Origin: an uncultured delta proteobacterium
GTDB taxonomy: Bacteria; Desulfobacterota; Zymogenia; Zymogenales; Zymogenaceae
Reading direction: 5' to 3'
NCBI GenBank assembly: GCA_963735595.1
Contig: CAVTLK010000001.1
Coordinates: forward strand, 640,001-704,000
Length of the DNA: 64,000 nt
Part shown: positions 19,729 through 45,437 of the stretch, piece after piece
Layout of the letters: each line of letters starts with the position of its first letter
How positions within the stretch are numbered: position 1 is the first letter of the stretch
Notes under the pieces: model-generated
The model's database searches: none
What the model saw: only the letters and a program-made list of their open reading frames with translations
What the model was told of the DNA's origin: nothing
Translations under genes and position numbers: made by a program

Positions 19729-22781
<3,053 letters not shown>

Positions 22782-23230: not shown

Positions 23231-23257
23231 ACTACCATCCTCATATAAATAGGTTGG

Positions 23258-24347: not shown

Positions 24348-24350
24348 TGC

Positions 24351-25093: not shown

Positions 25094-25216
25094 GCTCACG
25101 ACCCCGAAACCTGACCGAACGGCACAACCATCGAGATGCCCCGCCCCGGTGACGGTCCTGTTTCTTTTGCGCATCAGGAAAGGAGCTATGCCACCGTCGG
25201 TTCGGCAAGAAGAACC

Positions 25217-25562: not shown

Positions 25563-25581
25563 TTCTCAGCCCGCCTTATCG

Positions 25582-26038
25582 TTATGAAGCATCGGTGATA
25601 TCGACGACCATCACCAGCCTGGTTCCCTTTCCGACCTCCGAGGTAATATCGAAGTCGTCAGCGTATCGGTCAATATTCACCCAGCCCCATCCCCGCGCCG
25701 AAACCCATCTCCCGTATCTTGGCCGTCGAGGTGCTGTACCCCGCCTGCCTGGCCAGGTCGATGTCGGGGATACCTTCCCCCTCGTCGACCACCTCGATGA
25801 CAACGTGATCCTCGTCCACCGACAGCGTGATATCACCCCGCCGGGCATAACAGACGATGTTCATCTCCGCCTCAAAGGTGCAGATGGCGGCCTTCCGAAT
25901 CACGTCGAGGGGCAGACACATCTTCTTCAGTATGCCCTTGATGCGGCTCGAAACCTTGCCCGCGTCATCGAAGTCGCCGCCGGCGACCGAAAAGGTGTCC
26001 GAAAAGGACGGTTTTCTATCCGCGTTTTTTTCCGGCAT
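25582..26038 (-). CDS. Anti-sigma-factor type Ser/Thr kinase (RsbT-like; frameshifted)
   Basis: FEAEMNIV, DEGEGIPDIDLA..GYST..REMGFGAGMGL, SEVGKGT. Confidence 0.85.
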
Positions 26039-26390
26039 CTACCTTATCCACGCAGCCGACGATCCCCCATCTGTAGAGCCGTCCCGCAGTTTCGAAGAGG
26101 ATGTACCGCGTCATGAGGATGGGTATCTTCAGTTCCTCGGCAAGTTTGACGGTCTCCGGAGGCGGTACCTTACCCCGGACGATGATGATGGCGGCGATAT
26201 CGAGGATCTCGGACGTGCGGATCACCTGCGGATTCGTCAGGCCGGTTAACAAGCATGGTGCCCGGTCGGGCGAACGCGAGCACATCGCTCATCAGGTCAG
26301 CGCCGAAGGCGGTATCACCTCCTTTTGCATCTGATCCTGTCCGACGACTACTTCGGCATCGAGTATCTGTCGTACCTCGCTAAGTTTCAC
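26016..26390 (-). CDS. DRTGG-domain protein (frameshifted)
   Basis: ADLMSDVLAF (shifted frame), TGLTNPQVIRTSE..D..IIVRGK. Confidence 0.8.
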
Positions 26391-26506
26391 GTAACCGGGT
26401 ACCTCATAACTATTTGGTTAGCAGAGCCCGCCGTTGGCGCCGATCGAATGTGCACGCGACATCCGATACTACAAGCGTCTCCTTATCCGCTGTCCGTCAG
26501 TTCGGT

Positions 26507-27935: not shown

Positions 27936-27944
27936 GGTTATCCT

Positions 27945-28782
27945 CTATTTCTTGAGCGCCTGATTGAGAAAGCAATCCAGGGATTCGTGTTCCTGTTTCA
28001 TGTAGGTCTTCTGACGCATCATCAGCTCTTTGAAATCCACCTGATGCCCGTCAAATTCCGGCCCTTCCACACAGGCGAACTTGGACTTACCGTCGACCGA
28101 AACGCGGCACCCTCCGCACATGCCGGTGGCGTCAACCATGATGGAGTTCAGCGATACGACGGTATGGATTTTGTAGGGCCGCGTCACCTCGCTGACGGCC
28201 CGCATCATTACGACCGGGCCGATGGCCACCACGATATCGATCTTTTCCCCGGATTTAATAATCTCCTCGAGTGCCTGGGTAACGAACCCCTTCTGCCCGT
28301 AGGTCCCGTCATCGGTCATGACGATAAGCCGATCGGAGACCTTCTTCATCTCCTCTTCGAGGATAAGGAGGTCCTTGGTTCGGGAGCCGATGATGGTGAT
28401 GACCTTGTTACCCGCCTTCTTGAGCGCCTCGGTAATCGGATACATGGGCGCTACCCCCACGCCCCCGCCAACACAGACTACGGTCCCGAACTTTTCTATG
28501 TGGGTGGGCCTGCCGAGGGGACCGGCGAGGTCAAGGATGTTGTCACCCTGGTTCATCGTCCCGAGGAGTTTCGTGGATTTGCCGACTTCCTGAAAGATAA
28601 TGGTAACGGTGCCCGCCTTTGGGTCGGCGTCCGCGATGGTCAGGGGAATTCGCTCCCCCTGCTTCGTTGATACGAAGCACGATAAACTGTCCGGCCTTGC
28701 GCGCCTCGGCGATCTCACGGGCTTCGAGAACCATCTTGACAACGTCGGCCGACAGCCGTTCTTTTTTCACAATCTTTGCCAC
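27945..28782 (-). CDS. nfnA: NfnA small subunit (ferredoxin-NADP reductase-like; one frameshift)
   Basis: GQFIVLR..GERIPLTI, GGGVGVAP, MVDATGMCGGCRV, CVEGPEFD. Confidence 0.88.
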
Positions 28783-29030: not shown

Positions 29031-30278
29031 TTACGCCTTCTTGGGCGCGGGAGCCTTATAAGGAGCGCGAGCAGGAATCCGACGACGAGAAACGCCGCCG
29101 CTATGTACAGGGCCACACCCTTGAACTGGGCAAAGACCCACGGGCCGATGATTCCGGCGGTTGCCCACGCGGTCAGCATGAATCCGTAGACCCTGCCGAT
29201 GTAGGTCGGTCCGAACGAGTCTGCCGCAAACGCGGGCATCGTCGCGAATCCGCCGCCGTAGCAGGCCAGCAGGTAGCAGGCGATGACGGTAAACAGCACC
29301 GCAGCCACCGACCTTCGGAAGCAGGATGTAGAGGACGGCCTGCGTGGCGAACATGATCATGAACACGGCCTTGCGCCCGATCGTGTCCGATATCCACGCC
29401 CAGAAGAGCCTGCCGAGGCCGTTGAAGATCGACGCGATGGAAAGGATCGTTCCGCCGGCGACCGCCAGCGCGGCCGCAAGCTTGACGGGATCGGTCTTCT
29501 GTCATCGGTCTTTTTCAGCACTTCCTGCGCCATCGGGCGACAGCTGTGAGATAAGGCCCAGGCCCGCCGATACGTTCAGGAAGAGCATGCCCCAGAGCAT
29601 CCACCATTGCGGGCTTTTTCTGAGCCTCAGCCGCGGTAAATGAACCGGCGGCCGACGTTGCCGTCTTGGACGGGGTGAATCCCTTCGGCAGCCATCCCTG
29701 GGGCGGGTTCTTATAGAACGAAGCCGCACCGACACAGAGGACCAGGAAGATCGCGCCAAGGATGTACCACGTATTGGCGACACCCATTTTGAGGATCATC
29801 ACCGGGGCAAGCTTGCCGATAAAAAAGGCACCCCCGCCATAGCCCATAACGGCAAGGCCGGTCACCAGGCCGCGCTTATCCGGAAACCATCGAATAAGCG
29901 TGGCTATCGGCGTTACATACGCGGCGCCACCACCCATACCGGCGAATAAGCCAAAGCCGATATAGAGGAGGACTATGCTTCCGACGGAATCGGCTAGACC
30001 TGCCATCATCGTGCCGATACCGAACAGGATAGCACCGATGGTCGCCACGAAACGGGGACCTTTTTTGTCAAGAATACTGCCGCCGAACGCTGCCGAAAGG
30101 CCGGTAAACGCCATCGGATCATAAAGGTAACCTGCACCCCGACCTCTTCCCAGCCGTGTGCTTCCATGAGCGGTTTCTTGAAGACCGACCATGCGTAGAC
30201 GGAGCCGAGGCAGAGCTGCATCACGATCGCCGCAACGGCTATCCACCAGCGCTTCATTTCTAAATTTTCTTTACTCAT
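29031..30278 (-). CDS. OFA-family (oxalate/formate antiporter-like) MFS transporter (frameshifted)
   Basis: LGSVYAWSVF, RWFPDKRGLVTGLAVMGYG, FNGLGRLFW, YGGGFATMPA. Confidence 0.85.
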
Positions 30279-30807: not shown

Positions 30808-33117
30808 TCATTCCGGGGATATACCGGCCTTCACCCTGCCGCCTGCCGTAACCGCCTGCCCCAGGGCAATCCCGCCGTCGTTGGTTGGCACGCGGCGGTG
30901 AGTCAGTACCTCAAGCCGCGCCTTTTCGAGCGAATCGATCACGCCGGCCAGGAGCAGCCTGTTCTGAAAGCATCCGCCGCTCAGCGCCACCCGGCCGATC
31001 CCCGTTGTCTCGGCGATTTCTTTTACCGTCTGAACGATCCCGGCAATCAGCGTCGCGTGAAACGCCGCCGCCAGGTCCTGACGGGAGATACCGGCATCCA
31101 TTCCCTCGACGATTGCGCGAATCGTACCGGACAGGTCCAGGACGACCGTATCGTCCTTCAGTATGACTTCGAATGGGAGGATATCCGCGGCCCCTGCCGC
31201 AGCACACGCCTCAAGCTCCATCGCGGCCTGCCCTTCGTAGCTCACGCTTCTCTTCAATCCAAGGATTGCCGCTACTCCGTCAAATACCCGGCCCATGCTT
31301 GTGGTTACGGGGCTGTTGATATCCCGGTCTACCATTCGCATGAACGCCCCTTTCGCGGCGCATTCCGGCACCAATCCAAGCCGCTCGGCAATACCCTGCC
31401 ACCGGCTTCCATACGCGGTCTTTACGAGGCTTGCTCCCGTCCGCCACGGCTCACGGATAGCCGCCTCTCCTCCCGGAAGGGTAAAGGGGGCCAGGTGTCC
31501 CGCCCGTTTGAACCCAACCCGGTCCGCGATGAGCCATTCTCCGCCCCAGATTGTCCCGTCCGTGCCGTAGCCGGTCCCATCCAGCGCCACCCCGATTACC
31601 GTGTCCGATACCCCGTTTTCCGCCATGCAGGATACGATATGGGCGTGGTGGTGCTGGACCATGTGAACGATCGCCCCCTTCATACGCCGAGCCGCATCGG
31701 TCGTGAAATAGCCCGGGTGAAGATCGCAGGCGACGACCTTCGGCCCGCATTCGGTTATTCGCTGCATGAGCGCGACGGTCTCGTAGAAAAAGCCGCGCGC
31801 GCCGGGCGTATCCATGTCGCCGATATAGGGGCTCATGAAGGCCAGGTTCCCTTTCAGGATGCACACGGTTGACTTCAGGTGCCCCCCGACGGCCAGAACC
31901 TCGGGATACGATTCGGCAAGGACGATCGGCCCGGGGACGTACCCCCGTGACCGGCGCAGTATCGCCGGCCGCTCCCCCACCACCATCGCGATCGAATCGT
32001 CGCACCGAACGACGATCTCCCGGTCGTGGACAAGGAAGAAGTCGGCTATATCCGAGAGACTCGCCAGCGCGTCCTCGTTCCCGATGGCAATCGGCTCTCC
32101 GGAGCGGTTCCCGCTCGTCATGACCAGGGGCGGCATGTCGGAATCAAAAAGGAGGTGCTGCAACGGGGTGTAGGGCAGCATAACGCCGAAAGTTCCCATC
32201 CCCGGGGCAACGGACTGCGCGACGATAGTCTTTTCGGTGCGTGGCATAAGAACAATCGGCCGCCTGGCCGACGTCAAGAGCGCTTGTTCTTCGGGCGTAA
32301 TCTCGACAATCCGGCGGGCCTCCCGGAGATCCCTGACCATGAGCGCGAACGGCTTTTCTTCTCGAAGCTTGCGCCGCCTGAGCCGCAGGACCGCTTCGTC
32401 ATCGGTCGCGTCGACGGCCAGGTGAAATCCCCCGACACCCCGGATCGCCATGATCGAGCCGGAACGCAACAAGCGCGCCGCCTCGCCCACTGGATCGCCC
32501 GTGTCAACGGGCACGCCGTCGCCCGTCAGCAGCAGCACCTTCGGCCCGCAACGGGCGCAGGCGTTCGGCTGGGCGTGGAACCGCCGGCTTGCGGGATCCT
32601 CGTATTCGCTCCTGCAGTCCGGACAGAGATCAAATGCAGCCATCGAGGTCTTTTCCCGGTCATAGGGGATATCTTGAATGATGGTCAGACGGGGGCCGCA
32701 GTCGGTACAGTTGATGAATGGATAATGGTAGCGGCGATCGCCGGGGTCAAAGAGCTCCTCGACGCACCGGTCGCACGTCGCGATGTCGGGGGGGATGTGC
32801 AGGGCCGATTGCCCGGTCCTGCGGCTCGCTATGATGCGAAACTCGTCGGCCCCGACCGTCGGGATCGTTTCTTTTACGAGAGCCGGTGATCTCGGCCAGC
32901 GGCGGGAGTTCCGTTTCGGACGGCGGAAAAGAAGGATGATACCGAAGGGGGTTGTCCTTCCAGCTCCACGACAACGCCGTCCGACGTGTTCTTTACGAAC
33001 CCCGCCAGTCCGAAGCGTACGGCGTATCCGATAGATAAAGGGACGAAAGCCCACTCCCTGCACCGTGCCGGAGAACAGGGACCTCACGCGAATACGATCG
33101 TCCGAATTGGTTAACAA
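30808..33117 (-). CDS. hypF: Carbamoyltransferase HypF (local frame disruption in acylphosphatase domain; start approximate)
   Basis: GTVQGVGFRPF, CTDCGPR, RRFHAQP, QHHHAH, NDGGIALGQ. Confidence 0.92.
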   Translation of the reverse strand: MLTNSDDRIRVRSLFSGTVQGVGFRPFIYRIRRTLRTGGVRKEHVGRRCRGAGRTTPFGIILLFRRPKRNSRRWPRSPALVKETIPTVGADEFRIIASRRTGQSALHIPPDIATCDRCVEELFDPGDRRYHYPFINCTDCGPRLTIIQDIPYDREKTSMAAFDLCPDCRSEYEDPASRRFHAQPNACARCGPKVLLLTGDGVPVDTGDPVGEAARLLRSGSIMAIRGVGGFHLAVDATDDEAVLRLRRRKLREEKPFALMVRDLREARRIVEITPEEQALLTSARRPIVLMPRTEKTIVAQSVAPGMGTFGVMLPYTPLQHLLFDSDMPPLVMTSGNRSGEPIAIGNEDALASLSDIADFFLVHDREIVVRCDDSIAMVVGERPAILRRSRGYVPGPIVLAESYPEVLAVGGHLKSTVCILKGNLAFMSPYIGDMDTPGARGFFYETVALMQRITECGPKVVACDLHPGYFTTDAARRMKGAIVHMVQHHHAHIVSCMAENGVSDTVIGVALDGTGYGTDGTIWGGEWLIADRVGFKRAGHLAPFTLPGGEAAIREPWRTGASLVKTAYGSRWQGIAERLGLVPECAAKGAFMRMVDRDINSPVTTSMGRVFDGVAAILGLKRSVSYEGQAAMELEACAAAGAADILPFEVILKDDTVVLDLSGTIRAIVEGMDAGISRQDLAAAFHATLIAGIVQTVKEIAETTGIGRVALSGGCFQNRLLLAGVIDSLEKARLEVLTHRRVPTNDGGIALGQAVTAGGRVKAGISPE

Positions 33118-33124
33118 GCATCCA

Positions 33125-34226
33125 TCATTGGTACTTGTAATAGGCCGCGCAGGTTCCCTCCGCCGAGACCATGCAGGGGCCGAGGGGGTTTCGAGGGAAG
33201 CACGCCGAGCCGAAACCGCGGACATTCGGGTGGCGAGATGATCCCCTTGAGCACGTCTCCGCAGCGGCAGCCCGGCGTATCGTGAGACTCAACGGCCGGG
33301 ATGTCAAATCGCATCGACGCGTCAAATCCCCGATACTCCTTACGAAAGCCAAGGCCGCTTTTCGGTATCATCCCGAGGCCCCGCCAGATGCGAGTCGGCC
33401 AGCTCGAAGACCTCGTATGAGGATCCTGCGGGCCGCCGCTATTGCCCTCTTCCTTGACGCGCGCGCCGATACTGAATCTCGGTCTTTACGTCTCCCGGAG
33501 ATGATCTGTTCCAGGATCATCAGATCCCTTCGAGGATGTCCACCGGCTCAAAACCGGTGATCACTCCCGCCCGGCCGCTTTCGGGCGATGATGCGAATAG
33601 GCGGCCGTCCCGAGGATCGTGCTCACGTGCCCGGGAAGCATGAAACCGTCCACGGAGATCAGGGGATCGGAAAGGAGTGCATCGATTGCCGGGGGGATAA
33701 CTTTATGAACGGAAAACACCGCGAGATTGGAAATGGAGCATGACACTGGCGGTCTTGACGACCGACGCCGCCGCCGGCGACGTCGTCTCGAATCCGATCC
33801 CCATGAAGACGATCTGCCGGTCCGGGATTGTTTTTGCGCCAGCGTCCAGACACTCCACCGCGGAATCGACGACCCTGACGTCCGCACCGTCGGCCCGCTC
33901 CTTTTCCAGCGACCGCCGTTCCGGTGCCGGGCACCCGGAGCATGTCGCCGAAGGAGGCAAATATGACGCCGGGCTGACGGGCCAGGAACAGCGCCGCGTC
34001 GACGTCCTGCACGGCAGGTCACGCAGACCGGACAGCCGGGTCCCGAAATAAGCCGGATGTTTTCGGGGAGCAGTCCCCGTATGCCGAAACGGCCGATGGC
34101 GTTGGTGTGGCTTCCGCAGACCTCCATAATGGTGATCGACCGGGTTAGCCGTCCCGCCCGTTTTCTGACTGCGGCCAGAAGCCCGTTAAAAAGCTTCGGG
34201 TCCCGATACTCGTCAATAAACTTCAT
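33125..34226 (-). CDS. hypD: Hydrogenase maturation protein HypD (several frameshifts)
   Basis: MEVCGSHT, GPGCPVCVT, GFETT, PGHVSTI, GPCMVSAEGTCAAYY. Confidence 0.9.
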
Positions 34227-34440
34227 GTTCGGTAAGCTCCCGAAGCAGCGCAAGCTTCTCCCTGGCGAGCTCCTCATCGACCTTATGAATCGCGAAGCCC
34301 GCGTGACAGATGACGTAATCCCCGATCGTGACCTCTTCATCGATCAGGTCCAGAAAGGCCTCGCGCCGAGTCCCTTCGATATCGATAATCGCCCGATTAT
34401 CGTCGATGGAGATGATTTTCCCGGGAAATGCAATGCACAT
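34213..34440 (-). CDS. hypC: Hydrogenase chaperone HypC
   Basis: MCIAFPG...GDYVICHAGFAI. Confidence 0.95.
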   Translation of the reverse strand: MCIAFPGKIISIDDNRAIIDIEGTRREAFLDLIDEEVTIGDYVICHAGFAIHKVDEELAREKLALLRELTEHEVY

Positions 34441-34442
34441 TG

Positions 34443-34800
34443 CTACTCCTCTTGTTCCACTTCCATTTCGATGAGCTTCAGGTCTTCCGTGCCCCCTACC
34501 AGAAGCACCGAAGGATCACCGCATGAGGGGCACGATGAGTATCCCCTGATAGTCGATGTCATATTCCTTCCGACAGGAAGACACGAAATGACGACCGGAG
34601 TGATCTCGAAGGAAAGAACGGCCCCTTCGGCCCGGGTTCCCCGGGCCATCGCCTCAAACGCCGTCTCCAGGGCGTCCGGCTGGATGCACGACATCCTGCC
34701 GAACGAAAGCGTGATCCTGTCCGACTTTTGCCGCGTTGTTTTTTTCGGCGTGTTCAAGGGCGATCTCAAGGACCGACTGCGCCAGGCTCAGTTCGTGCAT
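34443..34800 (-). CDS. hypA: Nickel metallochaperone HypA (frameshifted)
   Basis: MHELSLA start, CPSCG, GGTEDLKL. Confidence 0.88.
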
Positions 34801-35297
34801 TCCGGCCTCCTGACGGGTTTTACCGAGAGGGCCGCCAACTCCTCCAGCAGCAACCGCTCAATATCCGAAAATCGCTCGACCAACAGATCCGAAATCCTTA
34901 CTTCCATTGTATCATATTTCTCCGGCACGACGGTGATAAAAGTAACCGGCGGGCATTGATCCAAAAGATCGGCCATGGCAAGGACGTCCAGGAACTCCAC
35001 CTCGTGGGCCGACGTGGGTGCGTGGCAGATAGAGCGACATCTCTTCTTTCGTGAATCGGTATAGTGAGCCCGGCGTATCGTCGATCCTGATCGCATCGAT
35101 GACGATGAGATGCCCGGCGCCGGTGACGATATCCAGGAGACCCAGGCCCGCCGTCCCCCCGTCCACCAGCGAGACGGTATCCGGCAGTATATACCGATCC
35201 GAAAACCAGGCGATAAATCGGACCCCGAATCCGTCGTCCCCGACGAGGAGGTTGCCGAGTCCCAGTATGGTGATAGTTTTGTTTTGTTCATCGGCAT
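34788..35297 (-). CDS. Hydrogenase maturation endopeptidase (HyaD/HybD family; frameshifted)
   Basis: ILGLGNLLVGDDGFG, DGGT, IDAI, SAHEV. Confidence 0.88.
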   Translation of the reverse strand: MPMNKTKLSPYWDSATSSSGTTDSGSDLSPGFRIGIYCRIPSRWWTGGRRAWVSWISSPAPGISSSSMRSGSTIRRAHYTDSRKKRCRSICHAPTSAHEVEFLDVLAMADLLDQCPPVTFITVVPEKYDTMEVRISDLLVERFSDIERLLLEELAALSVKPVRRPECTN

Positions 35298-35320
35298 GTA
35301 CGTAAAAAGACAAGGTCGCA

Positions 35321-35356
35321 TAATAACAAAGTCCTCGCCGAAAAGCGAGGACTTTG
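35321..35356 (-). terminator. Hairpin/terminator after hydrogenase structural genes
   Basis: CAAAGTCCTCGC-loop-GCGAGGACTTTG followed by TTATTA. Confidence 0.55.
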
Positions 35357-35416
35357 CGAGATTTGTGAGGGGAGAGGATCCTTCTCCCCTCTCATTTCTT
35401 GAACAGGCGAGCCGAT

Positions 35417-36108
35417 TCAGTGCTCTTTGGCCTTAAAGACCATGCCGTTTATCATCGAGGAGACGGTGCCTTCCTTGAAGACGATGTCGTACCAGAAGGC
35501 CATATAAATGTGCACGATGATAAACAGGACAAAGAGCCAGGTCAGGATATGGTGGACGTAGCGCACCATCGCCAGCCCCCCCATGCAGACGCTCGACGGG
35601 GGTCAGTATCCAGGCGTAAGGCCCAGCAGCCCGTGATCGTATCCCGCCCCGGTGAGGATGAGTCCCGTAATGACGATGAGAAAGATCATCACGAAGAGCC
35701 CCATGTAGGACAGCGCCTGCAGCGGCCCGTACAGGTAGACGTGCTCCGGGCGCTCGTTGGACACGAGTAGGTAGAACTTGATCTGTTTAATGAAGTTCTT
35801 CCAATCGGTGATCGCGAGGAAGTTCTTCCAGTTGGCGTGAAACCTCTCGAAAGAACCCCATGTACATTCTCCAGACGAACAGTATCGTGAGGATCACGCC
35901 GAACAGGAGGTGATAGTACCGCATCTCCCCCATGAGGAACTTATGCACCGTCTCTCCGGACGACACCGAGAAACGGATCGGCGATATACCAGCCGGTTAC
36001 GATAAGGAAGAAGATGGAGATCGCCATGGCCCAGTGGTGCACGCGGATTGGCACCGTCCATTCCCTGACGGGTGTCCTCTTTTCCATGGCCGTATCTTTA
36101 TTTTCCAT
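35417..36108 (-). CDS. hyaC: [NiFe]-hydrogenase cytochrome b subunit (frameshifted; absent from ORF track)
   Basis: Manual translation: IRVHHW..ISIF.LIVTG.YI, MRYYH, YGPLQ, VRYVHH..TW...IVHIYM. Confidence 0.85.
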
Positions 36109-36119
36109 GGCGGACTCCT

Positions 36120-37790
36120 TTACAATACTTTGAACTTCTTGATCTCGTTAGTCCTCGGGTCAATGATGTGGACGGCGCAGGCCATGCACGGATCAAACGA
36201 GTGGATCGTCCTGATGATCTCCAGCGGCTGATCAACGTTGGCAAGGCGAGTCCCGATCAGCGATTCTTCGTACGGCCCCCTGAGGCCGGCCGCATCCCTC
36301 GGCGAGCAGTTCCACGTCGAGGGAACGACCGCCTGGTAGTTTTCGATGACCTTGTTCTTGATCTTGATCCAGTGGCCCAGCGACCCGCGCGGCGCCTCTT
36401 TCATGCCGCGCCCTTGCGCCTCCTCGGGAACATCGCAGCGGGTCCACGTCCTGGTATCGCCGGACTTGATGTTGGTCACCAGCTCGTTGACCCAGGCCTC
36501 AGTATTGTCGGCGATGAGCTTGGTCTCGAGTGCCCGCGCGGCAGTCCTTCCAAGGGTTGAAAAGAGGACCGTGACCGGCAGTCCCGTGGCCTTGAGGGTG
36601 GAGTCGACCAGGTCCTTGATCTTCTGATCGCCCGTGGCATATCCGATGATGAAGCGTGCCAGCGGCCCCACCTCATAGGGGAGACCGTCGTACCGGGGCG
36701 CCTTGCACCAGGTATACTTCTCGTCGGCCTTGACGTGTCCGGACTCGTCGTAGTCGGTATAATTCGGTTCGGTTGACCCATCGTACGGGTGCAGCGGCTG
36801 GCCGTCCGTGTACCAGGAGTGCGTAACGTCCTCGGTGATCTTGGTCTCGTCAAGCTTCTCGACGTTTGCAAGGTCCCGGTTCTTGATGACGCCGGGCTGG
36901 AAGAACGTCGTGGTGTAGTCGTCGTCGAGGTTGATCCCCCCGTAGGAGAGGTAGTTCTTGACTCCGCCGCCGATCCCGGCCAAACCCTCGTCCTTGTAGT
37001 AGGTGGCCGCCAGCAGGACGTCCGGGATATACGCGGTCTCGACGAAGTTCCTCATCTCCTTGAGCCGGAAGAGATACTCGCCGATTCGGTAGGCGTCCAG
37101 CGTATCCATTACCGAGGTAACGCCGCCGGCAACCAGCGTCTGCGGGTGGGGGTTCTTGCCGCCGAAGATCGCCATCATCTGGGCGCCGACCTTTGAGACG
37201 GCCAGGGCGTCCAGGTAATGGGATACGATAATAAGGTTTGCCTCCGCGGGCAGCTTGTAGGAGGGGCTTCCCCAGTAGCCGTTGGCAAAGGGCCCTAACC
37301 GGCCCGATTCAACGAATTTTTTCAGCCGTTCCTGGACGGACTTATAGTGGGATGCGGAGGAATTGTACGGGTTGTCGCAATAGGCGCGCGCCATATCCTC
37401 GGCCCTCCGGGGGTCCGCCCCCAGGGCCGAAACGACGTCCACCCAGTCAAGACCGTGCAGGTGATAGAAATGCATGATGTGGTCGGTTATGTAGAGAGAT
37501 GCATTGATGAGGTTTCTCACGATACGGGCGTTCGTGGGCGGCTTGACCCCGAATGCGTCTTCCACTGCCAATATCGAGGCCTCATAATGGGAATAGGTGC
37601 AGACCCCGCAGAACCGCTGGGTCATGAGCCCCGCGTCCCGGGGGTCTCTCCCCTTGAGGATAGTCTCGATGCCCCGCCAGAGGGTGATGGTAGACCAGGC
37701 GTCCTTTACGGTATTACCCTCCAGCTCGACCTCTATGCGTAAATGTCCTTCAATCCGGGTAATCGGATCGATTATTATTTTCTGAGCCAT
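36120..37790 (-). CDS. hyaB: Group 1 [NiFe]-hydrogenase large subunit
   Basis: DPITRIEGH, L1 QRFCGVCTYSH, L2 SFDPCMACAVH plus cleavable C-terminal tail. Confidence 0.96.
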   Translation of the reverse strand: MAQKIIIDPITRIEGHLRIEVELEGNTVKDAWSTITLWRGIETILKGRDPRDAGLMTQRFCGVCTYSHYEASILAVEDAFGVKPPTNARIVRNLINASLYITDHIMHFYHLHGLDWVDVVSALGADPRRAEDMARAYCDNPYNSSASHYKSVQERLKKFVESGRLGPFANGYWGSPSYKLPAEANLIIVSHYLDALAVSKVGAQMMAIFGGKNPHPQTLVAGGVTSVMDTLDAYRIGEYLFRLKEMRNFVETAYIPDVLLAATYYKDEGLAGIGGGVKNYLSYGGINLDDDYTTTFFQPGVIKNRDLANVEKLDETKITEDVTHSWYTDGQPLHPYDGSTEPNYTDYDESGHVKADEKYTWCKAPRYDGLPYEVGPLARFIIGYATGDQKIKDLVDSTLKATGLPVTVLFSTLGRTAARALETKLIADNTEAWVNELVTNIKSGDTRTWTRCDVPEEAQGRGMKEAPRGSLGHWIKIKNKVIENYQAVVPSTWNCSPRDAAGLRGPYEESLIGTRLANVDQPLEIIRTIHSFDPCMACAVHIIDPRTNEIKKFKVL

Positions 37791-37815
37791 TCTCACTCTC
37801 CTTTATGATGGCCTG

Positions 37816-39027
37816 CTACTTTTTTTCGGCTTTCTTCTTCTTGTCGTCTTCCGGGCCGTGGCGCTTGATGGCCGAAGCCGCTGCATGGGCGGCAACGCCG
37901 GCCACCGTGAGGCCCGCCAGGGTCGCGAAGACCGTGTTGACAGTGGACTCAACCCCCTTTACGCCGATCGCCCCATCGGATATCGGTTTTTCGAGGGGGG
38001 CCATCGTATCCCAGAAGGCCGGCTCGTAGCATCCCATACAGCCGTGACCGGCCATGATCGGCCACGAGGTGCCGTCGTTATAGCGGACCTTGCCGCAGTT
38101 CGCATAGGTGTAGGGGCCCTTGCACCCCATCTTATAGAGGCACCAGCCCCGCTTTGCGCCGGCGTCGCCCCATTCCTCGACATACTCGCCGGCGTCGTAG
38201 TGGGAGCGCCGCTCGCAGTAGTCGTGAATACGCTTTCCGTAGGCAAACAGCGGCCTGCCGAGGGAATCGGTGGCCGGCAGCGCCCCGAACATCAGGAAAT
38301 GGAGAACGGTCCCGACGAAGTTTACCGGGTTGGGGGGGCATCCCGCGATGTTGATCGTCCTGATCCCGAGGGAGTCCCGAATGCCCTTGGCATCCGTCGG
38401 GTTGGGCTTGGCAGCCTGGATGTTACCGAAGGAAGAGCAGCTCCCGATGCAGATGACGGCGGCGGCCTTCGAGGCCGCTTCCTTGCCGATCTCTTTTCCG
38501 GTTTTCCCCTCGCTCCCGATCCTCAGGTACTTGCCGTCCAGACCCTCGGGGATGGCACCCTCGATGACCAGCACGTACTGCCCCTCGAAATCGGCCATGG
38601 CCTTCGTGAGGTTTTCCTCGGCCTGCTTGCCGGAAGCGGCCATCAGGGTCTCGTGGTACTCCAGGGAGATCGTGTCCAGGAGAATGTCATCGACGTTCGG
38701 ATAGGACGTGCGCAGGAATGCCTCGCTGCACCCGGTGCACTCGGCGAAGTTAAGCCAGATGACCGGCAGCCGGCTGAAGTTCTCCGCCGCGCGCGCCACC
38801 ATGGGGCGGAACATCGGCGGGAGCATCATGACGCCGGTTATGAACGACGTCCACTTGACGAACTCCCTGCGTGAGACCCCCCGCGCCTTGAGGCTTTCCT
38901 GAAGACTCTCTCTCGGTTCGGGCAATGTCTCTTCAATTTGATCCAGTTGGACCTGACAGTACTCCATTAATTCCCGGTACTGCTTTTCTACCGTCCGGCG
39001 GTGGCCGGAGCCGTTTGTGCCGCCCAT
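37816..39027 (-). CDS. hyaA: Group 1 [NiFe]-hydrogenase small subunit (Tat signal, C-terminal membrane anchor)
   Basis: AAAGGAGG SD before ATG 39027; SRREFVK, ECTGCSE, GCPP, CLYKMGCKGP, HGCMGC. Confidence 0.95.
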   Translation of the reverse strand: MGGTNGSGHRRTVEKQYRELMEYCQVQLDQIEETLPEPRESLQESLKARGVSRREFVKWTSFITGVMMLPPMFRPMVARAAENFSRLPVIWLNFAECTGCSEAFLRTSYPNVDDILLDTISLEYHETLMAASGKQAEENLTKAMADFEGQYVLVIEGAIPEGLDGKYLRIGSEGKTGKEIGKEAASKAAAVICIGSCSSFGNIQAAKPNPTDAKGIRDSLGIRTINIAGCPPNPVNFVGTVLHFLMFGALPATDSLGRPLFAYGKRIHDYCERRSHYDAGEYVEEWGDAGAKRGWCLYKMGCKGPYTYANCGKVRYNDGTSWPIMAGHGCMGCYEPAFWDTMAPLEKPISDGAIGVKGVESTVNTVFATLAGLTVAGVAAHAAASAIKRHGPEDDKKKKAEKK

Positions 39028-39258
39028 AATGCCTCCTTTCAATAGATCATCTGGTCTCTGTAGGAAACTACTCGGTATAATCAATTAGATCGGCGCGCAA
39101 TCCTTCCGCCCCGCTTTCTGTACGGATTATCGATGCTCATTGGACATCGATGCCGGCAGGGAGCCGATTGCCCGGCTTCGTATCGAGCGGGTCTCGATAA
39201 TCGTGATGCCGACAACAAAGCACTCCGACCTGATGAGATCCGCTGTCAGTTCGCCGCT

Positions 39259-39370
39259 AAGATAAAACCGGTGTTTTGGGAAGGATACGCGATGCGCAAG
39301 GGTAAGATTCCGGGAAGATGACATGGGCACGTCATCCCGATCCTGCGCCGTTCTCCTTTCCAAACACGGG
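39259..39370 (-). terminator. Putative riboswitch-controlled terminator (long imperfect hairpin overlapping aptamer 3' end)
   Basis: UCCUUCCCAAAACACCGG (39268-39285) is complementary to aptamer CCCGUGUUUGGAAAGGA; followed by UUUUAUCUU. Confidence 0.5.
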
Positions 39371-39493
39371 AGGCATGGGCGTTTCCGTCCATACCCTATC
39401 GTCCCTGTTCCATCGGCGGAGGGGAAAGGATTGCCTTTTCGTGGCCGTAAATCCCTTCCCGACCCGTACCATTAGGGCACAGGGATCGGAGAA
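39351..39493 (-). ncRNA. Moco/Wco-family riboswitch (P3-less type) upstream of the hydrogenase operon
   Basis: P1 UUCUCC/GGAGAA; P2 UCCCUGU/ACAGGGA with CCUAA...AUGG receptor-like motif; P4 GGGUAUGG..GAAA..CCAUGCCU; canonical 3' end CCCGUGUUUGGAAAGGAG. Confidence 0.88.
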
Positions 39494-39502
39494 AGCAGGT
39501 TA

Positions 39503-39531
39503 TTTATAGTGCAACCGCATAAAGATGTCAA
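39503..39531 (-). promoter_or_regulatory. sigma70-like promoter directly before the riboswitch
   Basis: TTGACA-17 nt-TATAAA. Confidence 0.65.
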
Positions 39532-39684
39532 GGTTTTTTGATGGGCGGGTAGATGAAAAGAAGCGATAGGGGATAGCCCCACAATAGCGCTGTTATCCCG
39601 CTACCCATAACATGACAGCGGGCGGAAGTGAGGAGAGCGGCTAGCCGGCATCGGCCGCGTGCTGTCCTGCCGGAACGTACTCTA

Positions 39685-40534
39685 TTATGTATCGATTGCC
39701 AGGACGCTCACCAGGTCGACCGTGTCCCGGATATATCCCTCCCGTTTCGCAACGATATCAAGGCGGATGGTCGTAAGGTCCTCAAGTCTCGGGAAGGGCG
39801 TCGGCCTTTCTTTCGAGTCGACCGATTTCAGGTAGTGCTTACAGGTATCGCAGACATATACCCGGTGGGCGGGGTCGTTTTCAACCGTGAAATATCGTGT
39901 CTTTTCCCGCCCGGCTTCACCACAAAACGGACAGGTCAACCGGCGGAAGTTCCACCGCGTCAAACATCGGCCGCAGGAGAGCGTGAGACGTGCCGTCCTC
40001 TCCCTCGATGAGCGAAAGGTGCGGGGCGGCGCCGCACACGGGGCAGTAGGAGGCCGCCCACTTGTCCAGCAATCCGGTTCGCTCAAAGCTCTCCTTAATC
40101 GGATTAAGGAGATACCGCAGCGTCTCGTTTGCCGCCAGAAGCGCTACCGGACGCGAGCCCCCGAATCCCTCCGGAAAGAGATATTCCTGGCTCAGCACCC
40201 CGCTCAGCAGCGCCCGGAAGGCCTGCCGATCGCCGTAAAACCCGACGATTTCCTCGGCGCCTTTCTGATCCTTTTCGAGCACGACGGTTACCAGCCGGGC
40301 AAACCGCTTCCCGAGCCTTTCGACATCGTCAGGAATCAGCCGCACGTCGGCCAGAGGGAATCCGTCGGACAACCGGCCTGAATCCGGAGGGGCGTCCGCT
40401 TGCCTCTGCGTCCCCGTCTCTTCTCCGCCGATTCGCACAAAACCCGTCAGGATTGCCAGAAGCGGCTCGATTTTCGGGTCATTACTCATCGCCCGTTTAA
40501 TGGCGGCGATTTCGGGGTCTTTCATGTATGCCAT
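39685..40534 (-). CDS. fdhE: Formate dehydrogenase accessory protein FdhE (frameshifted)
   Basis: YCPVCGAAP, CGRCLTRW...CPFCGE, VCDTCKHYLK, DLTTIRLD. Confidence 0.85.
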
Positions 40535-40599
40535 TCCCCATAATGATTGGGGCGGCCGTACGGCCGCCCCTTCAATGATAGATCGGGTTTTCGGCTCAC

Positions 40600-41238
40600 T
40601 TAAGCCTTTGACTTTCGGGTTTCCTTGACGATCTTTTCCCGGTAGTAGCCGGGCATATGGGTCTTGGCCCACGCCTCGGTCACCTTGCCGTCCGTCATGA
40701 CCGGCAGGCTGCCCGTCGTGCCGACGGTGCCGAGATAGATGTGCACCATCGAAAACCCGCCCATGACGGCAACACCGAGGGCATGAAAGACCACCGTCCA
40801 CCGCATGAGCGGAGCCCAGATGAGGCCCTTTCCGAACCAGAGCAGTAACCCCGTGGCAATCATTACGGCGCCGTAGAGTGCCACCGTAATAAAGAACAGC
40901 TTCTGGCCCGCGTTGTACTTATACGGCTCGGGTATTTTCGCCTTCCAGAGGTAACCGCCCGCCGCCTTCATCCACTCGATATCTGTCTTGTCGATGTAGC
41001 CCGCTTCTTTATACCAGTGACGCACGGCAAAGACAAGGGCAATCGTGAAGACAAGGCCGATAAACCGGTGGTAGTCCTTGACCGCCCGGTAACCGCCGAG
41101 CATTTCGGCAAGGGGGGCAAACGCGTTGACGGCGATTATCAGACCGGTAAAGACCAGGGCCAGACACGTCCCCGCCAGAACCCAGTGGATTACCCGCTCG
41201 TAGGGGGTCGATGCGATAACGACTTTTTGCCCAGCCAT
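40600..41238 (-). CDS. fdnI: Formate dehydrogenase gamma (cytochrome b) subunit
   Basis: ERVIHW, KYNAGQK, VHIYLG, GKVTEAWAKTH. Confidence 0.92.
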   Translation of the reverse strand: MAGQKVVIASTPYERVIHWVLAGTCLALVFTGLIIAVNAFAPLAEMLGGYRAVKDYHRFIGLVFTIALVFAVRHWYKEAGYIDKTDIEWMKAAGGYLWKAKIPEPYKYNAGQKLFFITVALYGAVMIATGLLLWFGKGLIWAPLMRWTVVFHALGVAVMGGFSMVHIYLGTVGTTGSLPVMTDGKVTEAWAKTHMPGYYREKIVKETRKSKA

Positions 41239-41239
41239 G

Positions 41240-42043
41240 CTACTTACCTCCCTCTTCCTTGGGATGCTTCGGTCCCTTGATCATATAGTGAAGGAGCGCC
41301 CCCCGATGACGCCTCCGATTGACAGGAGTCCGAGCGGTTTGGCGATGTTTCTCCAGAGTTTTACGGTTATCGGGACGTGCGGCGAGACCGGGAGCTTCGC
41401 GTAGAGCTTTTCCTGCTCGGTCAGCACGTACATGACGTGGGTCCCATCGACGTAGTCCCTACCGTACAGGGAGGCCGCCAGACCTTTTTCGACAAGTTGG
41501 GCCACCCGCTGCTCTCCCTTGTCGATCATCTGCTCTTTGAGGCCGAAGCTGAGGCACCCGGTGGGGCATGCCTTGACGCAGGCCGGAATCATTCCGTTGG
41601 TGATTCTATCCTCGCAAAGGGTGCACTTATACGTCACCTTCGTCTCTGAGTCGTAGCGCGGTATACCGAACGGACAGGCAATGACGCAGTACTTGCAGCC
41701 GATGCAGAGGTCCCGGTTGAGCCTGACGGCCCCTTTCTCCCCGTACGTGAGGGCGCCGGAAGGGCAGACCCGCACGCAGGAGGCGTCGGTGCAGTGAAAG
41801 CACCCGTCCTTGCGGAAAATCCAGTCGACACTGCCGTCCTCTTTTTCACGCTCCTGGAAGCGGATGAGCGTCCAGGTGTTGTGTTGAAGGTCGGGAGGGT
41901 TTTGGTGGCTTCCCCAATTTGTTGTCTGGGCGCCCGGCTGTGAATTCCAGTTCTTGCAGGCAACCTGACAACCGCGGCATCCCGTGCACTTTGGAGAGGT
42001 CGATGAGTTTGACCATCTCTTCCTTTATCTTTGTCGCTGCCAT
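41240..42043 (-). CDS. fdnH: Formate dehydrogenase beta (4Fe-4S) subunit (frameshifted)
   Basis: GCRGCQVACK (shifted), CIGCKYCVIACPF, KCTLCEDR...PACVKACPTG, C-terminal TM. Confidence 0.88.
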
Positions 42044-45000
42044 TATAGCCACCCTCCTTTCACCTTTTCAACATTAACCAGGAAGGCCTTGCTCTCGGGA
42101 ATTGAGGTGTTTGGGTCACCGATAGTCGACGTGAGCAGATTGGCCGAGTCGCCGAACGTGTAGACCTCCGGCTTGGGCACGGCAGGATCGCTGCTCTGCC
42201 CCTCCTCGGTGGTCCGCCACCCGAAGTGCCACGGGATACCGACCTGATGGAGCTCGACGTTGTCACCGAGTTTAAACGGTTTAAACCGCTTGGTCACGAT
42301 GGCAACGGCCACTATTTCGCCCCTGGCCGACGAGACCTTAACCCGGTCACCCCCTTCGATCCCCTTCATCTCCGCGAGCTCTTCGCTCATCTCTACAAAA
42401 TTTCCCGGCTGCATCTCTGCCAGCCAGGGCTGCCAGCGCGTCATAAGCCCGGTCTGCCAGTGTTCCGTAACGCGGTACGTAGTCGCCAGAATCGGGTACT
42501 TCGGATCGCAGGTGCCGGCGTAAACGTCGACGTCGCTGCCGACTTCCGGTCTATCGTAGCGGCGGATGACGGGACTGATGAGCTGTTTGGGATTGAGCAG
42601 GTTTGCCGGCACGGGACACTCGACAGGCTCATAGTGCACCGGGAACGGGCCGTCGGCAAGGCCGGGGCCGAATATCGATGCTACGCCCTCTTTCTGCATG
42701 ATGAAGGGGAGCCTCCCATCCGGGTTGGTGGACCCGTCGGCCTTTTTGAGCGGCGGATAATTCCCGTCGATGACATCCCCAACCCACTTGTCTCCGGCCC
42801 AGCGGACGACCGGCTTTGCCGGCGCCCACGGCTTGCCGGTGGGATCGACCGATGCGCGGTTGTAGATGATCCTCCGGTTGACGGGCCAGGACCATGCCCA
42901 TTTCGGGAAAAGACCGATGCCCGACGTATCCGTGTTGTTCCTTCGGGCGGAGTTGTTGCCGTCCGCGTTGTAGGACTGGGAATAGACCCAGCTACCGCTG
43001 GAGGTGGAACCGTCGTCCTGGAGCATTACGAACGAAGGCACGAGGTCCCCCTTCTTATACTGCTTGTCCTTGATGACTGTATCGTCGAGGAAGTATCCGT
43101 TTATCTCTTTGGCCACGTAGTGGCGTATCAAAGGCCTTCATCTTGCCCGAGTAGTCCTTAGGGCCGTATTCCCAGGCGAGCTTGGTGAAGGCTTCCTTCA
43201 AGACGGCGTTGTCCTTCTCCATGTGCTCCCTGACCTTGAAGAAAGAGCTCGGTATGATCTCGCCGTCGGCCATCGCCTCTCCCGGCGGATTGACCGCCTT
43301 ATAGCGCCATTGCATCCAGCGACCGGAGTTGGTGATGCTCCCCTCCTTTTCGAGGGACGCGGCGCACGGAAGCATGAAGACCTCTGTCTTGATATCGGCG
43401 GGTTCATTCCAGGACCCCGCCAGAAAGAGCCGGTCTCGTTGTCGAAGAGATTGACGTTCACGAGCCACTCGAGCTTCGCCAGGCCCTTTCTGACCTTATT
43501 CGCATGGGCACCGGAGCATGCCGGGTTCTGACCCCAGGCGAGCACACCCTTGAGTTTACCCTTGTAGGCGGCGTCCCAGATCTGCAGCCAGGAGTAGTTG
43601 ACGCCGTCGTCGGGCTTGGGGAGGTAGCCGTAGCCTCTTCGAGAGTGGCGTTCAAGCCGTAGAGCGCCCGCAGGAGACTCACCATATACTTGGGATAGTT
43701 GGATGCCCAGCTCGCGCTCAGGGGGTTGGATGGCTTGACTGCGTGATCCGGGCCGGTTGTAGGCGGCCAGCGTACGCCAGAGACGCGGTCGGCGCGGCGA
43801 GGTATCCGGGAAGAATATGGTAGAGGAGTGCCGTAGTCGGTGGAGCCCTGAACGTTGGACTCCCCCTCAGCGCGTTGACGCCGCCTCCGGCCACTCCCAT
43901 GTTGCCCAGAAGCATCTGGATGATGGACATCGCCCGGATGTTCTGGACGCCGACCGTGTGCTGCGTAAAGCCCATGGCGTACAGGATCGTCCCGGCCTTG
44001 TCGGACGCTCCCGCTCTTCGCGTACGCCTCGTAGACGGCCGATGAGCTTATCTTCGGGGGTGCCGGTAACCTGTGAGACCGTCTTCAGGCTCGTACCGGT
44101 CATACTCTTTCTTGAGCAGCTGTAAAACGCACTGCGGATCAGTAAGCGTCCGGTCTTTCATCGGGAACCCGTCCCCGCCGGCCACGAACGTCCAGGTCGC
44201 CTTATCGTATTTGCCGCCCGCCGGCGTCTCCGTCAGGCCGGAAAATACGCCGTCGTTGTCTGCCGCCAGCTTAAAGGCTGAATTGACGACAAACGACGCG
44301 TTCGTATATTCCCGGACGTATCTCAGAAGTAGAGCTTCTTTGTCGATGATATACCTGATCATACCGCCCAGAAAGGCGATATCCGATCCGGATCGGAGGG
44401 GGGCGTAGATGTGGGCCTTTGATGAAGTCTGGGTGAACCTCGGATCGACGCTGATAAGGACGGCACCGTTGTCGATAGCCCGCTGTACCCATTTGAAGGA
44501 AATCGGGTGATTTGCGGCAGCATTGCTGCCCATGACAAGAATGACGTCACTGTTCTTCAGATCGATCCAGTGATTGGTCATTGCGCCTCTACCGAACGAC
44601 TCTGCCAGAGCCGCTACCGTTGCGCTGTGTCAGATACGGGCCTGGTGTTCAATATACACCAGGCCTAACCCCCTCAGGAATTTCTGATAGACATAGCATT
44701 CTTCGTTGTCCATGGCCGCGCTGCCGACCGAGGCGACCGCGGTCGTTCGGTTGACGACCTGGCCCTTGTCGTTGGTGCGGGTGAAGCTCTCGTTGCGGGA
44801 CTTGACGATTCTCTTGGCGATCTTGTCGAGGGCCCAGTCCCACGATACCGCTTCCCATTTGTCCGAGCCGGGGGCGCGGTAGAGGGGAGTCGACAGGCGG
44901 GCGTCATTGACCGCTATCTGATAGAGCGAGCCGCCCTTCGGGCAGAGGGAACCCTCGTTGATCGGGTGATCTGGATCGCCCTCGGTGTTGATCACCGTGC

Positions 45001-45187
45001 CGTTGCGGGTATGGACGATGATTCCGCAGCCCACCGCGCAGTAGGGACAGATGGTGGTCGTCTCTGTGGCGTACAGGGTTTTCAGCGGGAGCGCCTCCGC
45101 CCGAACCGAAGCGATATTCAGGCCCAGACCTCCCACGAAGACCGTGGCGCCGGTTAGTCTAAGAAACGTACGTCTGGTAACTTCCAT
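42043..45187 (-). CDS. fdnG: Periplasmic selenocysteine formate dehydrogenase-N-type alpha subunit (UGA=Sec at 44630-44632; several frameshifts)
   Basis: Tat TRRTFL; CPYCAVGC; EHQARI-U-HSATVAAL..SFGRGAMTNHW; WPVNRRIIYNRAS; TTYRVTEHWQTG. Confidence 0.92.
44597..44613 (-). promoter_or_regulatory. SECIS-like hairpin of fdnG
   Basis: CGGCTCT-GGC-AGAGTCG 16 nt downstream of the UGA. Confidence 0.7.
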
Positions 45188-45258
45188 GGCTCTCCTCTTT
45201 GCCTGAGTAATACTTTATTGACCGTTGACGTTCAACCCGATTGGCCAACCAAACCAAT

Positions 45259-45315
45259 AAAAAAAAGGAAGAGATACCTCCCCCTTGTCCCCATGGGAAG
45301 GTCATCTCTTCCTTT
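45259..45315 (-). terminator. Intrinsic terminator in fdnG leader overlapping aptamer P1
   Basis: AAAGGAAGAGAUGACCUUCCC...GGGGAGGUAUCUCUUCC followed by U8. Confidence 0.85.
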
Positions 45316-45394
45316 GCAAACGGCGGGGTAAGCGATCTCTCCCTTACCCGTATCGGCTCACGGATCCCGTCGGGATCGGTGAACTCGGAAGATA
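45304..45394 (-). ncRNA. Variant Moco/Wco-family riboswitch (compact, P3-less) upstream of fdnG
   Basis: P1 UCUUCC/GGAAGA, GA, P2 GUUCAC..GAUCCC-GAC-GGGAUC..GUGAGC, CGAUA junction, P4 GGGUAAG..GAGA..CUUACCC, P5 GC-CGUUU-GC, AAAGG: same topology as the 39351 aptamer. Confidence 0.72.
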
Positions 45395-45408
45395 GTATTT
45401 TCGCGAAA

Positions 45409-45437
45409 ATAATATACGGGTGGTACTAAAATGTCAA
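45409..45437 (-). promoter_or_regulatory. sigma70-like promoter of the fdn operon
   Basis: TTGACA-17 nt-TATTAT. Confidence 0.75.

Follow-up and report, generated by a model that had tools for sequence, protein, structure and literature searches.

Paired Moco/Tuco-type leader RNAs with predicted opposite signs at formate dehydrogenase and hydrogenase operons of Candidatus Zymogenaceae

The closest described relatives of the RNAs treated here are the molybdenum-cofactor (Moco) riboswitches (RF01055), among which a class lacking stem P3 has been tied to tungsten (tungsten cofactor, Tuco or Wco; Regulski et al. 2008, PMC2408646). The portions of that paper used here describe a receptor-less minority with GCAA loops, place one receptor-less RNA (Dre-1-1) before an AOR gene in the alignment and show OFF control for Escherichia coli moaA; no ON design was seen in these portions, and the main text contains neither 'hydrogenase' nor 'formate dehydrogenase'. 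Among the entries consulted in its supplementary Fig. S2, Swo-1-8 and Swo-1-10 of Syntrophomonas wolfei precede an [FeFe] hydrogenase with a cytochrome b, and Swo-1-11 precedes fdnGHI-fdhE. According to the relevant part of PMC5101538, S. wolfei has been modelled with either enzyme type as menaquinol outlet, depending on growth, and whether H2 or formate serves as the electron carrier of syntrophs depends on growth conditions; no sensor for this choice was found named in the literature searched.

Here we analyse a 64,000-nucleotide (nt) window (G000:C1:640001-704000; 'window' denotes this whole stretch) of a 3.63-Mb genome, G000, which comprises five contigs, is 93% complete and belongs to a set of ten genomes of Candidatus Zymogenaceae (G000-G009). 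Two operons in the same orientation on its minus strand encode a formate dehydrogenase (FDH; fdnG(Sec)-fdnH-fdnI-fdhE, 45187-39685) and a [NiFe] hydrogenase (hydS-hydL-cytochrome b, 39027-35417), and each is headed by a leader RNA. Like the P3-lacking Tuco/Wco subclass, such RNAs have a P1-P2-P4-P5 junction without P3, and a genome carries several of them, at tup, moe, aor and fdh genes. We propose, with a probability of about 0.6, that the two leaders have opposite signs: the cofactor would turn the tungsten/selenium (W/Se) FDH operon on and the cofactor-free [NiFe]-hydrogenase operon likely down.

The two leader RNAs and their predicted signs

The features of the two leaders are as follows; 'genus leaders' are the five hydrogenase leaders of the window's genus (G000, G001, G002, G003 and L090), and ALDH is an NAD-dependent aldehyde dehydrogenase.

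45409..45437, minus strand: sigma70-type promoter of the fdn operon, TTGACA-17-TATTAT, 11/12 of the consensus; similar sites lie 5' of the relatives' fdn switches.
45301..45398, minus strand: short P3-less, receptor-less Moco/Tuco aptamer of the fdn/aor subtype; P1 5' strand at 45392-45387, P4 loop GAGA.
45259..45312, minus strand: intrinsic terminator that uses the P1 3' strand as its 5' arm and leads into U8; from the fold, terminator score +46; predicted ON platform.
39503..39531, minus strand: sigma70-type promoter of the hydrogenase operon, TTGACA-17-TATAAA, read from the sequence and kept in 5/5 genus leaders; not listed by the promoter scan.
39337..39503, minus strand: P3-less Moco/Tuco aptamer of the canonical type (GAAA tetraloop and P2 receptor), with P2 extended by 50 nt; RF01055 64.9 bits, E 2.5e-13; aligns with tupA, tupB and ALDH aptamers.
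39259..39345, minus strand: expression platform with an inner hairpin, a C-rich tract, an anti-P5/P1 segment (39285-39268) displacing P1, then UUUUAUCUU at 39267-39259; predicted OFF, with ON the less likely sign.

The initial annotation, made by reading the sequence, had placed a sigma70 promoter and a P3-less Moco-type aptamer at the head of each operon, and both assignments hold. The hydrogenase leader is the sole RF01055 match in the window and passes the gathering threshold (36 bits) over the full model. The fdn leader does not reach that score and is unmatched by Rfam in the window even at E<=10. Because Rfam was blind to it, we built the custom covariance models R1 and R2, the latter from 30 canonical aptamers and without the fdn/aor subtype; R1 scores of its own training sequences are not counted as evidence. 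With R2, a canonical-type model, the fdn leader scores 45.4 bits, and its orthologs in G001 and G003, the only ones among eight relatives' fdn leaders to do so, exceed the RF01055 gathering score (54.6 and 51.5 bits). Across 12 aligned fdn/aor leaders, P1, P2, P4 and P5 are kept and 10 of 27 pairs have changed on both sides. In this alignment, whose structure was derived from the same 12 related sequences, 94.4% of cells are paired, a value matched by 0/500 shuffles and compared with 39-52% in slid controls. By its sequence, the fdn leader is a true Moco/Tuco relative, a divergent variant that should work like the family, rather than a scoring RF01055 member.

Both leaders run from P2 through CGAUA directly into P4, as the P3-lacking subclass does. 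The GAAA tetraloop and P2 receptor of the canonical Moco fold are present in the hydrogenase RNA, whereas the fdn aptamer has a GAGA loop and no CCUAA/AUGG receptor, in line with the structural difference first noted between the two. Receptor calls were taken from the alignments; the regular expression for the receptor was crude and miscalled five rows. The missing GAAA-receptor contact and a different P5 in fdn/aor aptamers would be compatible with two ligands, either Mo and W cofactor or metal-free and metal-loaded pterin, and direct ligand binding is not shown for the class in the portions of PMC2408646 used. We nevertheless hold two ligands to be very improbable: both aptamers lack P3, the feature which those portions tie to tungsten, tupA is present with modA not found, and the receptor-less type leads genes for both FdnG, of the bis-molybdopterin guanine dinucleotide family, and AOR. 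As in hosts of the P3-lacking subclass, the genome carries five AOR loci and a TupA-type PF12849 binding protein under its own switch; a modA match was not found in this 93% complete assembly. The same gene content counts for an opposed tungsten wiring. An earlier suggestion that the two aptamers discriminate Mo from W thus gains no support, and within the family the structural difference tracks the sign of control.

Terminators were scored by the d'Aubenton Carafa rule in all fdn, aor, hydrogenase and tupB leaders, and in 5/12 tupA and 4/9 ALDH leaders. In every fdn/aor leader of the family (17/17), the best-scoring terminator begins with the P1 3' strand and has a U-rich tail, with scores of +14 to +46; stems and loops vary. 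Because P1 and the terminator are mutually exclusive, bound ligand should allow read-through, and the fdn leader is predicted to be a transcriptional ON switch. Without ligand, the P1 3' strand would pair into the terminator ending in U8, a structure read from sequence and conservation; with ligand, P1 would be held and the polymerase would read on. One result speaks against this scheme: even while P1 is intact, a short hairpin ahead of this U-tract reaches scores of +17 to +28 (G000, G003, G007-G009). Since this hairpin is positive in the bound state, ON control needs the inner stem to form first, and a constrained fold favours that stem in the G000 fdn leader but not in G007.

Separately, a very short variant of about 80 nt with a minimal P2 and an ON-type terminator, missed by Rfam, lies before fdnG at L208:2809-2890.

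An overlapping terminator had been described for both leaders; it is found in the fdn leader (45312-45259, U8) but not in the hydrogenase leader, whose inner hairpin has no U tail and whose long alternative hairpin, followed by UUUUAUCUU, scores -11.3, below threshold. Throughout the family, no hydrogenase leader scores as a terminator in either state (0/10; -8.6 to -33). In folding computations on the 5/5 genus leaders, P1 forms with a probability of 0.82-0.96 when the transcript reaches +60 nt but of 0.00 by +87 nt, and this displacement from +60 to +87 nt matches that of the G000 tupB leader. The hydrogenase aptamers are of the GAAA/receptor type, as are those of tupA, tupB and ALDH, and for 9/10 the nearest non-hydrogenase aptamer is that of tupA. 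The sequence downstream of the aptamer has a C>G skew of 0.33 in hydrogenase leaders (positive in 10/10; 0.30 in the G000 platform) and 0.32 in tupB leaders, compared with -0.12 in fdn leaders and a background of -0.03 +/- 0.21.

Among canonical family switches, 22/36 have a start codon 6-8 nt after the AGGAG of P1 (shuffles: mean 4.7, maximum 12 in 2000; kin are not independent), compared with 2/17 ON-type switches. In the hydrogenase leaders of G007, G008 and G009, ATG, TTG and GTG interchange at one site that opens 61-110 codons, and in G006 an ATG after the P1 ribosome site opens 53 codons. The P1 strand serving as ribosome site of a leader open reading frame (ORF) in G006-G009 is the OFF geometry of E. 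coli moaA. In L094, before a hydS relative, a U9 terminator forms with P1 intact (score +27.6).

In the window's hydrogenase leader, the computed states suggest that without ligand the downstream segment would strip P5/P1 into the long hairpin, and that with ligand the aptamer would persist, leaving the C-rich tract and the anti-Shine-Dalgarno segment free. The output may be Rho-dependent termination or occlusion of the hydS ribosome site; Rho is present in the genome.

Several results weigh against an OFF sign here. No genus leader starts a leader ORF at P1 (0/5), no leader ORF is conserved among them, and no bound-state terminator was scored in them. When P1 is forced, the unpaired cytidines hardly increase in number (from 6.5 to 7.0 of 21 in G000), and occlusion of the ribosome site rises clearly only in L090 (0.35 to 0.04) and is inconsistent across ten whole-leader folds. 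The hairpins of the G007-G009 hydrogenase leaders also score negative. Hydrogenase aptamers of different genera are as near to tupA or ALDH aptamers as to one another; they are not clearly one lineage, so the sign may differ among them and cannot be taken as simply inherited by orthology. Finally, the ligand-free hairpin of the genus is kept through sequence change and has a U-rich run on its 3' side in 5/5 leaders, directly in G000 and G003 and after a gap in G001, G002 and L090, with scores near the threshold in G000 (-11.3), G001 (-8.6) and G003 (-9.9).

This hairpin with UUUUAUCUU could be a weak terminator, in which case both leaders would be ON and the cofactor would co-induce hydrogenase and FDH, whatever the sign elsewhere. 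The lack of a leader ORF or bound-state terminator in the genus would suit such a design, and long-stem terminators do occur in the family (G007-G009 fdn, 79-83 nt). We consider it unlikely, however, as the U-tracts are short or detached (tail term 3.2-4.2 versus 4.0-6.0 in ON types), G002 and L090 score -28 and -27, and the tupB and G006-G008 ALDH leaders share such a hairpin without a U tail. Every other readable hydrogenase platform points to OFF, and the sign would have to flip without a change of aptamer subtype. The initial annotation had favoured a hydrogenase built only when the FDH can be matured; this is less likely, as the leader shares aptamer type and platform with tupA, tupB and ALDH, not with fdn/aor. 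Its fallback, an OFF hydrogenase switch that makes the pair a formate/H2 toggle, appears from the sequences to be the best reading, because the predicted signs differ: 17/17 fdn/aor terminators versus 0/10 hydrogenase leaders. We put the window's hydrogenase leader at about two in three to be an OFF switch, and the prediction that both operons receive the same cofactor signal through RNA is supported.

Conservation and the switch regulon of the family

The layout recurs in related genomes, as the initial annotation had expected. A switch lies 5' of hydS in 9/10 family genomes (in G008, the leader and gene start stand at the end of one contig and the rest of the gene on another), and a short-type switch precedes all eight full fdnG copies, about 770 nt away in G004, as well as an fdnG start that lies at the edge of a contig in G009. 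In G000-G004 the two operons are neighbours with the same orientation; in G006 they diverge, and in G007 and G008 they lie on separate contigs. In all these arrangements, both operons retain their switches. We rejected the possibility that the hydrogenase RNA is merely the 3' end of the fdn operon, as it accompanies hydS in the genomes where the two operons diverge (G006) or are split between contigs (G007, G008). In G005, hydS directly follows miaA, and neither an fdnG ortholog nor a hydS switch is present (one genome, 88% complete); this joint absence counts for the opposed wiring.

Outside this set, 160 further hydS loci were collected, 75 of them at least 62% identical and 62 of these holding 900 nt upstream. 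Only six of the 62 carry a switch, which weighs against the opposed wiring: L090, L160 and L187 are in the family or genus, and L094, L098 and L208 have another aptamer subtype. L208 repeats the double layout, with an ON-type fdn and a canonical hydrogenase switch. None of the 51 non-family matches examined in the phylum lies before a hydrogenase. In the family of G079, G109 and G139, genomes carry six to eight switches with 6-kb spacing; their target genes, identified by eye from the N-terminal sequences, are of cofactor, transport and xanthine-dehydrogenase-like types, and the FDH/hydrogenase layout is not repeated there. Canonical-type aptamers without a terminator stand directly before fdnG or aor in other Desulfobacterota (L191:141-249, L287, L304, L307, L286), and therefore the link between subtype and target is not phylum-wide.

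That 56/62 close hydS loci manage without a switch would also agree with a hydrogenase switch that only trims expression, with fdn ON, a second promoter in the 310-470-nt leader giving most hydS transcription, and no real toggle. TTGACA-type sites do lie 3' of the aptamer in G007 and G009, and a block about 40 nt before the hydS ribosome site is conserved in the genus. Against this, which we judge improbable, the aptamer and its own promoter are kept in 9/10 family genomes and follow hydS through rearrangements, and the promoter scan lists no consensus second promoter in the window's leader. Second promoters that appear inside some leaders (G004 fdn, G007-G009 hydrogenase) do leave the description of the regulon as 'RNA-only' unproven.

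Opposed wiring, our preferred reading, would extend to a family-wide substitution regulon. The G000 genome has six Moco/Tuco-type RNAs: the short receptor-less type leads fdnG and one aor, and the canonical type leads tupA, tupB-moeA-moaA (named by eye), ALDH and hydS, a pattern that recurs across the family. The ALDH is identified by PF00171 on the G001 copy; 3' of it, two genomes (G001, G005) have an [FeFe] hydrogenase and two others (G000, G003) a cytoplasmic [NiFe] hydrogenase, with a terminator-like hairpin (G000) or promoter-like sites (G001, G005) in between. In G002, a canonical switch with a leader ORF stands directly on a cytoplasmic [NiFe] hydrogenase operon (family shown on the G000 homolog). 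The ON side would comprise tungsten enzymes (FdnG and one AOR per locus), and the OFF side tungstate uptake, cofactor synthesis and the tungsten-free stand-ins, NAD-ALDH and the hydrogenases.

Further observations concern the other switches. The ALDH switches and that of the G002 cytoplasmic hydrogenase start a 24-codon leader ORF (35 in G005) from the P1 ribosome site (L001, G000:C1:155208 onward; L045, L048, L049, L053, L058); a (Y/C)FPPP motif is kept in six of these ORFs, and a polyproline stall may contribute to control. The tupA leader ORFs (L003, the G000:C5 tupA leader; L052, L055, L059) stay at 42 codons despite frame-shifting indels, and their stop overlaps the tupA start in G000 and G003, suggesting translational coupling. 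Tandem switches occur before aor (ON-type; L065 and L068, in G007 and G008) and before ALDH (canonical; L058, in G005). Canonical switches at moa/moe/tup genes (L271, L273, L277, L283, L308, L064, L067) in many cases have a terminator loop complementary to P5, a recurring antiterminator design.

Because both carry a cytochrome b, the FDH and the hydrogenase likely serve a common membrane electron pool as alternative outlets or inlets, with tungsten supply deciding between them. The genome has 18 acyl-CoA dehydrogenase matches, and the class Zymogenia is described as fermentative, with tungsten unmentioned in the part of the source used (10.1101/2021.03.22.436540). In P. carbinolicus, FDH activity rises 100-2700-fold with tungstate (PMC4275255, in part). 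The wider proposal is that one riboswitch class, in receptor-less ON and canonical OFF forms, acts as a tungsten rheostat swapping redox modules (FdnG for membrane hydrogenase, AOR for NAD-ALDH) and so setting formate versus H2 hand-over by a fatty-acid-oxidising anaerobe, the logic having arisen separately in Zymogenaceae, in the L208/L098 lineage and in Syntrophomonas. We offer it tentatively, at somewhat less than even odds.

Other results count against the toggle. Searches for mqnA/D and menD found neither in the genome, which bears on the quinone of the electron pool; three UbiA-family genes are present. Hydrogenase activity of P. carbinolicus, in which the presence of such a switch is unchecked, is unchanged by tungsten in the same portion of PMC4275255. 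In the part of the S. wolfei proteome study used (PMC3582634), the tungstate transporter and FDH-2 are high together, with weak Hyd2, which a simple toggle does not explain; judged by position, FDH-2 (Swol_0797-0800) appears not to be the Swo-1-11 operon.

Separately, the RNA runs, one of which had 6% of the words, gave only contigs of relatives and nothing on the leaders and their platforms.

Genes of the two operons and their surroundings

On the minus strand, miaA is followed by the fdn operon, the hydrogenase operon and then hupD/hypA/hypC/hypD/hypF, down to 30808.

42043..45187, minus strand: fdnG, Tat-exported selenocysteine (Sec) FDH alpha subunit, frameshifted here; TIGR01553 in three pieces with nine frame switches; the G001 copy is intact (1047 aa).
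39685..42043, minus strand: fdnH (Fe-S subunit), fdnI (cytochrome b) and fdhE; TIGR01582, TIGR01583 and TIGR01562.
39556..39582, minus strand: weak terminator-like hairpin after fdhE, between the operons; pattern match only, with 12 terminator-like sites in the scan versus 13.0 by chance.
37816..39027, minus strand: hydS, small subunit of the [NiFe] hydrogenase, which has a twin-arginine motif and ends in a hydrophobic tail; TIGR00391 above cut-off, and Pfam.
36120..37790, minus strand: hydL, group 1-type [NiFe]-hydrogenase large subunit; PF00374; the best solved relatives are periplasmic [NiFe] hydrogenases.
35417..36108, minus strand: hydrogenase cytochrome b, frameshifted here; PF01292 on the intact 229-aa G001 copy.
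30808..35313, minus strand: maturation genes hupD, hypA, hypC, hypD and hypF; hypC from the G001 ORF mapped here, the others by profile matches; outside the interval first annotated.

These genes bear out two adjacent operons, each a twin-arginine-translocated (Tat) unit with its own cytochrome b: twin-arginine motifs were read from the sequences of FdnG and HydS, and there is one PF01292 cytochrome b per operon, that of the hydrogenase scored on the intact G001 copy. The fdn operon has the make-up of FDH-N (FdnGHI), with a Tat Sec alpha, an Fe-S beta and a cytochrome b gamma subunit plus FdhE, and is a putative tungsten enzyme. An in-frame TGA (44632-44630) lies within an HQARI-U-HS motif and is followed by a hairpin resembling a selenocysteine insertion sequence (SECIS_3 at E 0.1, below gathering score). 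The hydrogenase combines a tailed Tat small subunit, a large subunit with Ni-binding CxxC motifs and a cytochrome b, as do group 1 membrane-bound [NiFe] hydrogenases, and HydL ends in DPCMAC, with cysteine rather than Sec. The hydS start lies about 310 nt 3' of the Rfam match, and its nearest relative among named genomes is from Candidatus Zymogenaceae (94% identity), followed at 62-76% by mostly Smithella, Syntrophaceae and other deltaproteobacterial records.

In this assembly, frameshifts affect six of the ten genes checked (fdnG, fdnH, fdhE, cytochrome b, hupD and hypF), and because of this the alpha, beta and FdhE pieces fall below whole-protein cut-offs. The frameshifts are most likely assembly indels, because the G001 copies are intact and unrelated genes are broken too; pseudogenes were rejected as less likely on the same grounds.

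Other features of the window were noted in passing. Two hairpins between the hydrogenase cytochrome b and hupD (35326-35391) may divide the transcript or make it more stable. At 16941-23755 (minus strand) lies a second Sec formate dehydrogenase, which is cytoplasmic and has NuoE/F-like partners; no Moco-type RNA was found upstream of it. Directly after hypF, at 23988-28742 and 29515-30278 (minus strand), we recognised by eye hydrogenase-associated regulatory proteins (DRTGG, PHP, kinase-like), an NfnA-like gene and an oxalate/formate or lactate MFS transporter, which makes this a 30-kb formate/H2 island. Two tRNA genes lie at 8392-8466 and 15785-15856.

Comparison with known systems

Compared with the RNAs of Regulski et al., the receptor-less form goes with an ON terminator in 17/17 family cases here. 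S. wolfei, a fatty-acid syntroph, is alike in that RNAs of this class precede both its hydrogenase and its FDH-N, each of them linked to a cytochrome b; it differs in that the hydrogenase is [FeFe] rather than [NiFe], its switches are in tandem, the operons are unlinked, the FDH aptamer is canonical and the phylum is another one, and the table entries consulted give no sign. A 2022 survey (PMC9481103) mentions, in the part used, tandem Wco riboswitches before 'ferredoxin hydrogenase' and 'nickel and zinc binding hydrogenase' genes, in one sentence without sign, mechanism or FDH pairing; the switches in Zymogenaceae are single. The Tuco regulon of Eubacterium limosum, as far as covered in the consulted part of PMC11725836, comprises five P3-less switches, whose targets include a W-aldehyde oxidoreductase gene and tupABC and whose platforms are partly transcriptional, partly translational; it differs in having no switch before its FDH and no hydrogenase target ('hydrogenase' does not occur).

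In our literature search, no paper turned up in which Moco/Tuco RNAs control FDH and hydrogenase, or AOR and ALDH, in opposed ways; the supplements of PMC9481103 and PMC11725836 may list such cases. The parts are known or already listed, and it is the opposed wiring and the enzyme-swap regulon that we infer, from sequence alone. Such a reciprocal tungsten-cofactor switch would be a concrete, testable candidate answer to the choice between H2 and formate: if it is true, metal supply would choose the electron carrier. The culturable S. wolfei has RNAs of this class at both enzyme types, and the locus offers a matched pair of natural reporters, ON and OFF, for riboswitches whose binding of a ligand is unproven. 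Of nine leaders of the predicted ON subtype before fdnG, Rfam misses seven.

A parallel from another cofactor is the cobalamin riboswitch, which represses B12-independent isozymes, for example metE and nrdAB. The category 'isozymes of B12-dependent enzymes' is named in PMC3766115. There as here, a cofactor-type RNA would shut off the cofactor-free stand-in. In the wiring that we propose, however, the stand-in would run on other chemistry, with H2 in place of formate, and RNAs of one and the same class are predicted to switch on the enzyme that uses the cofactor as well.

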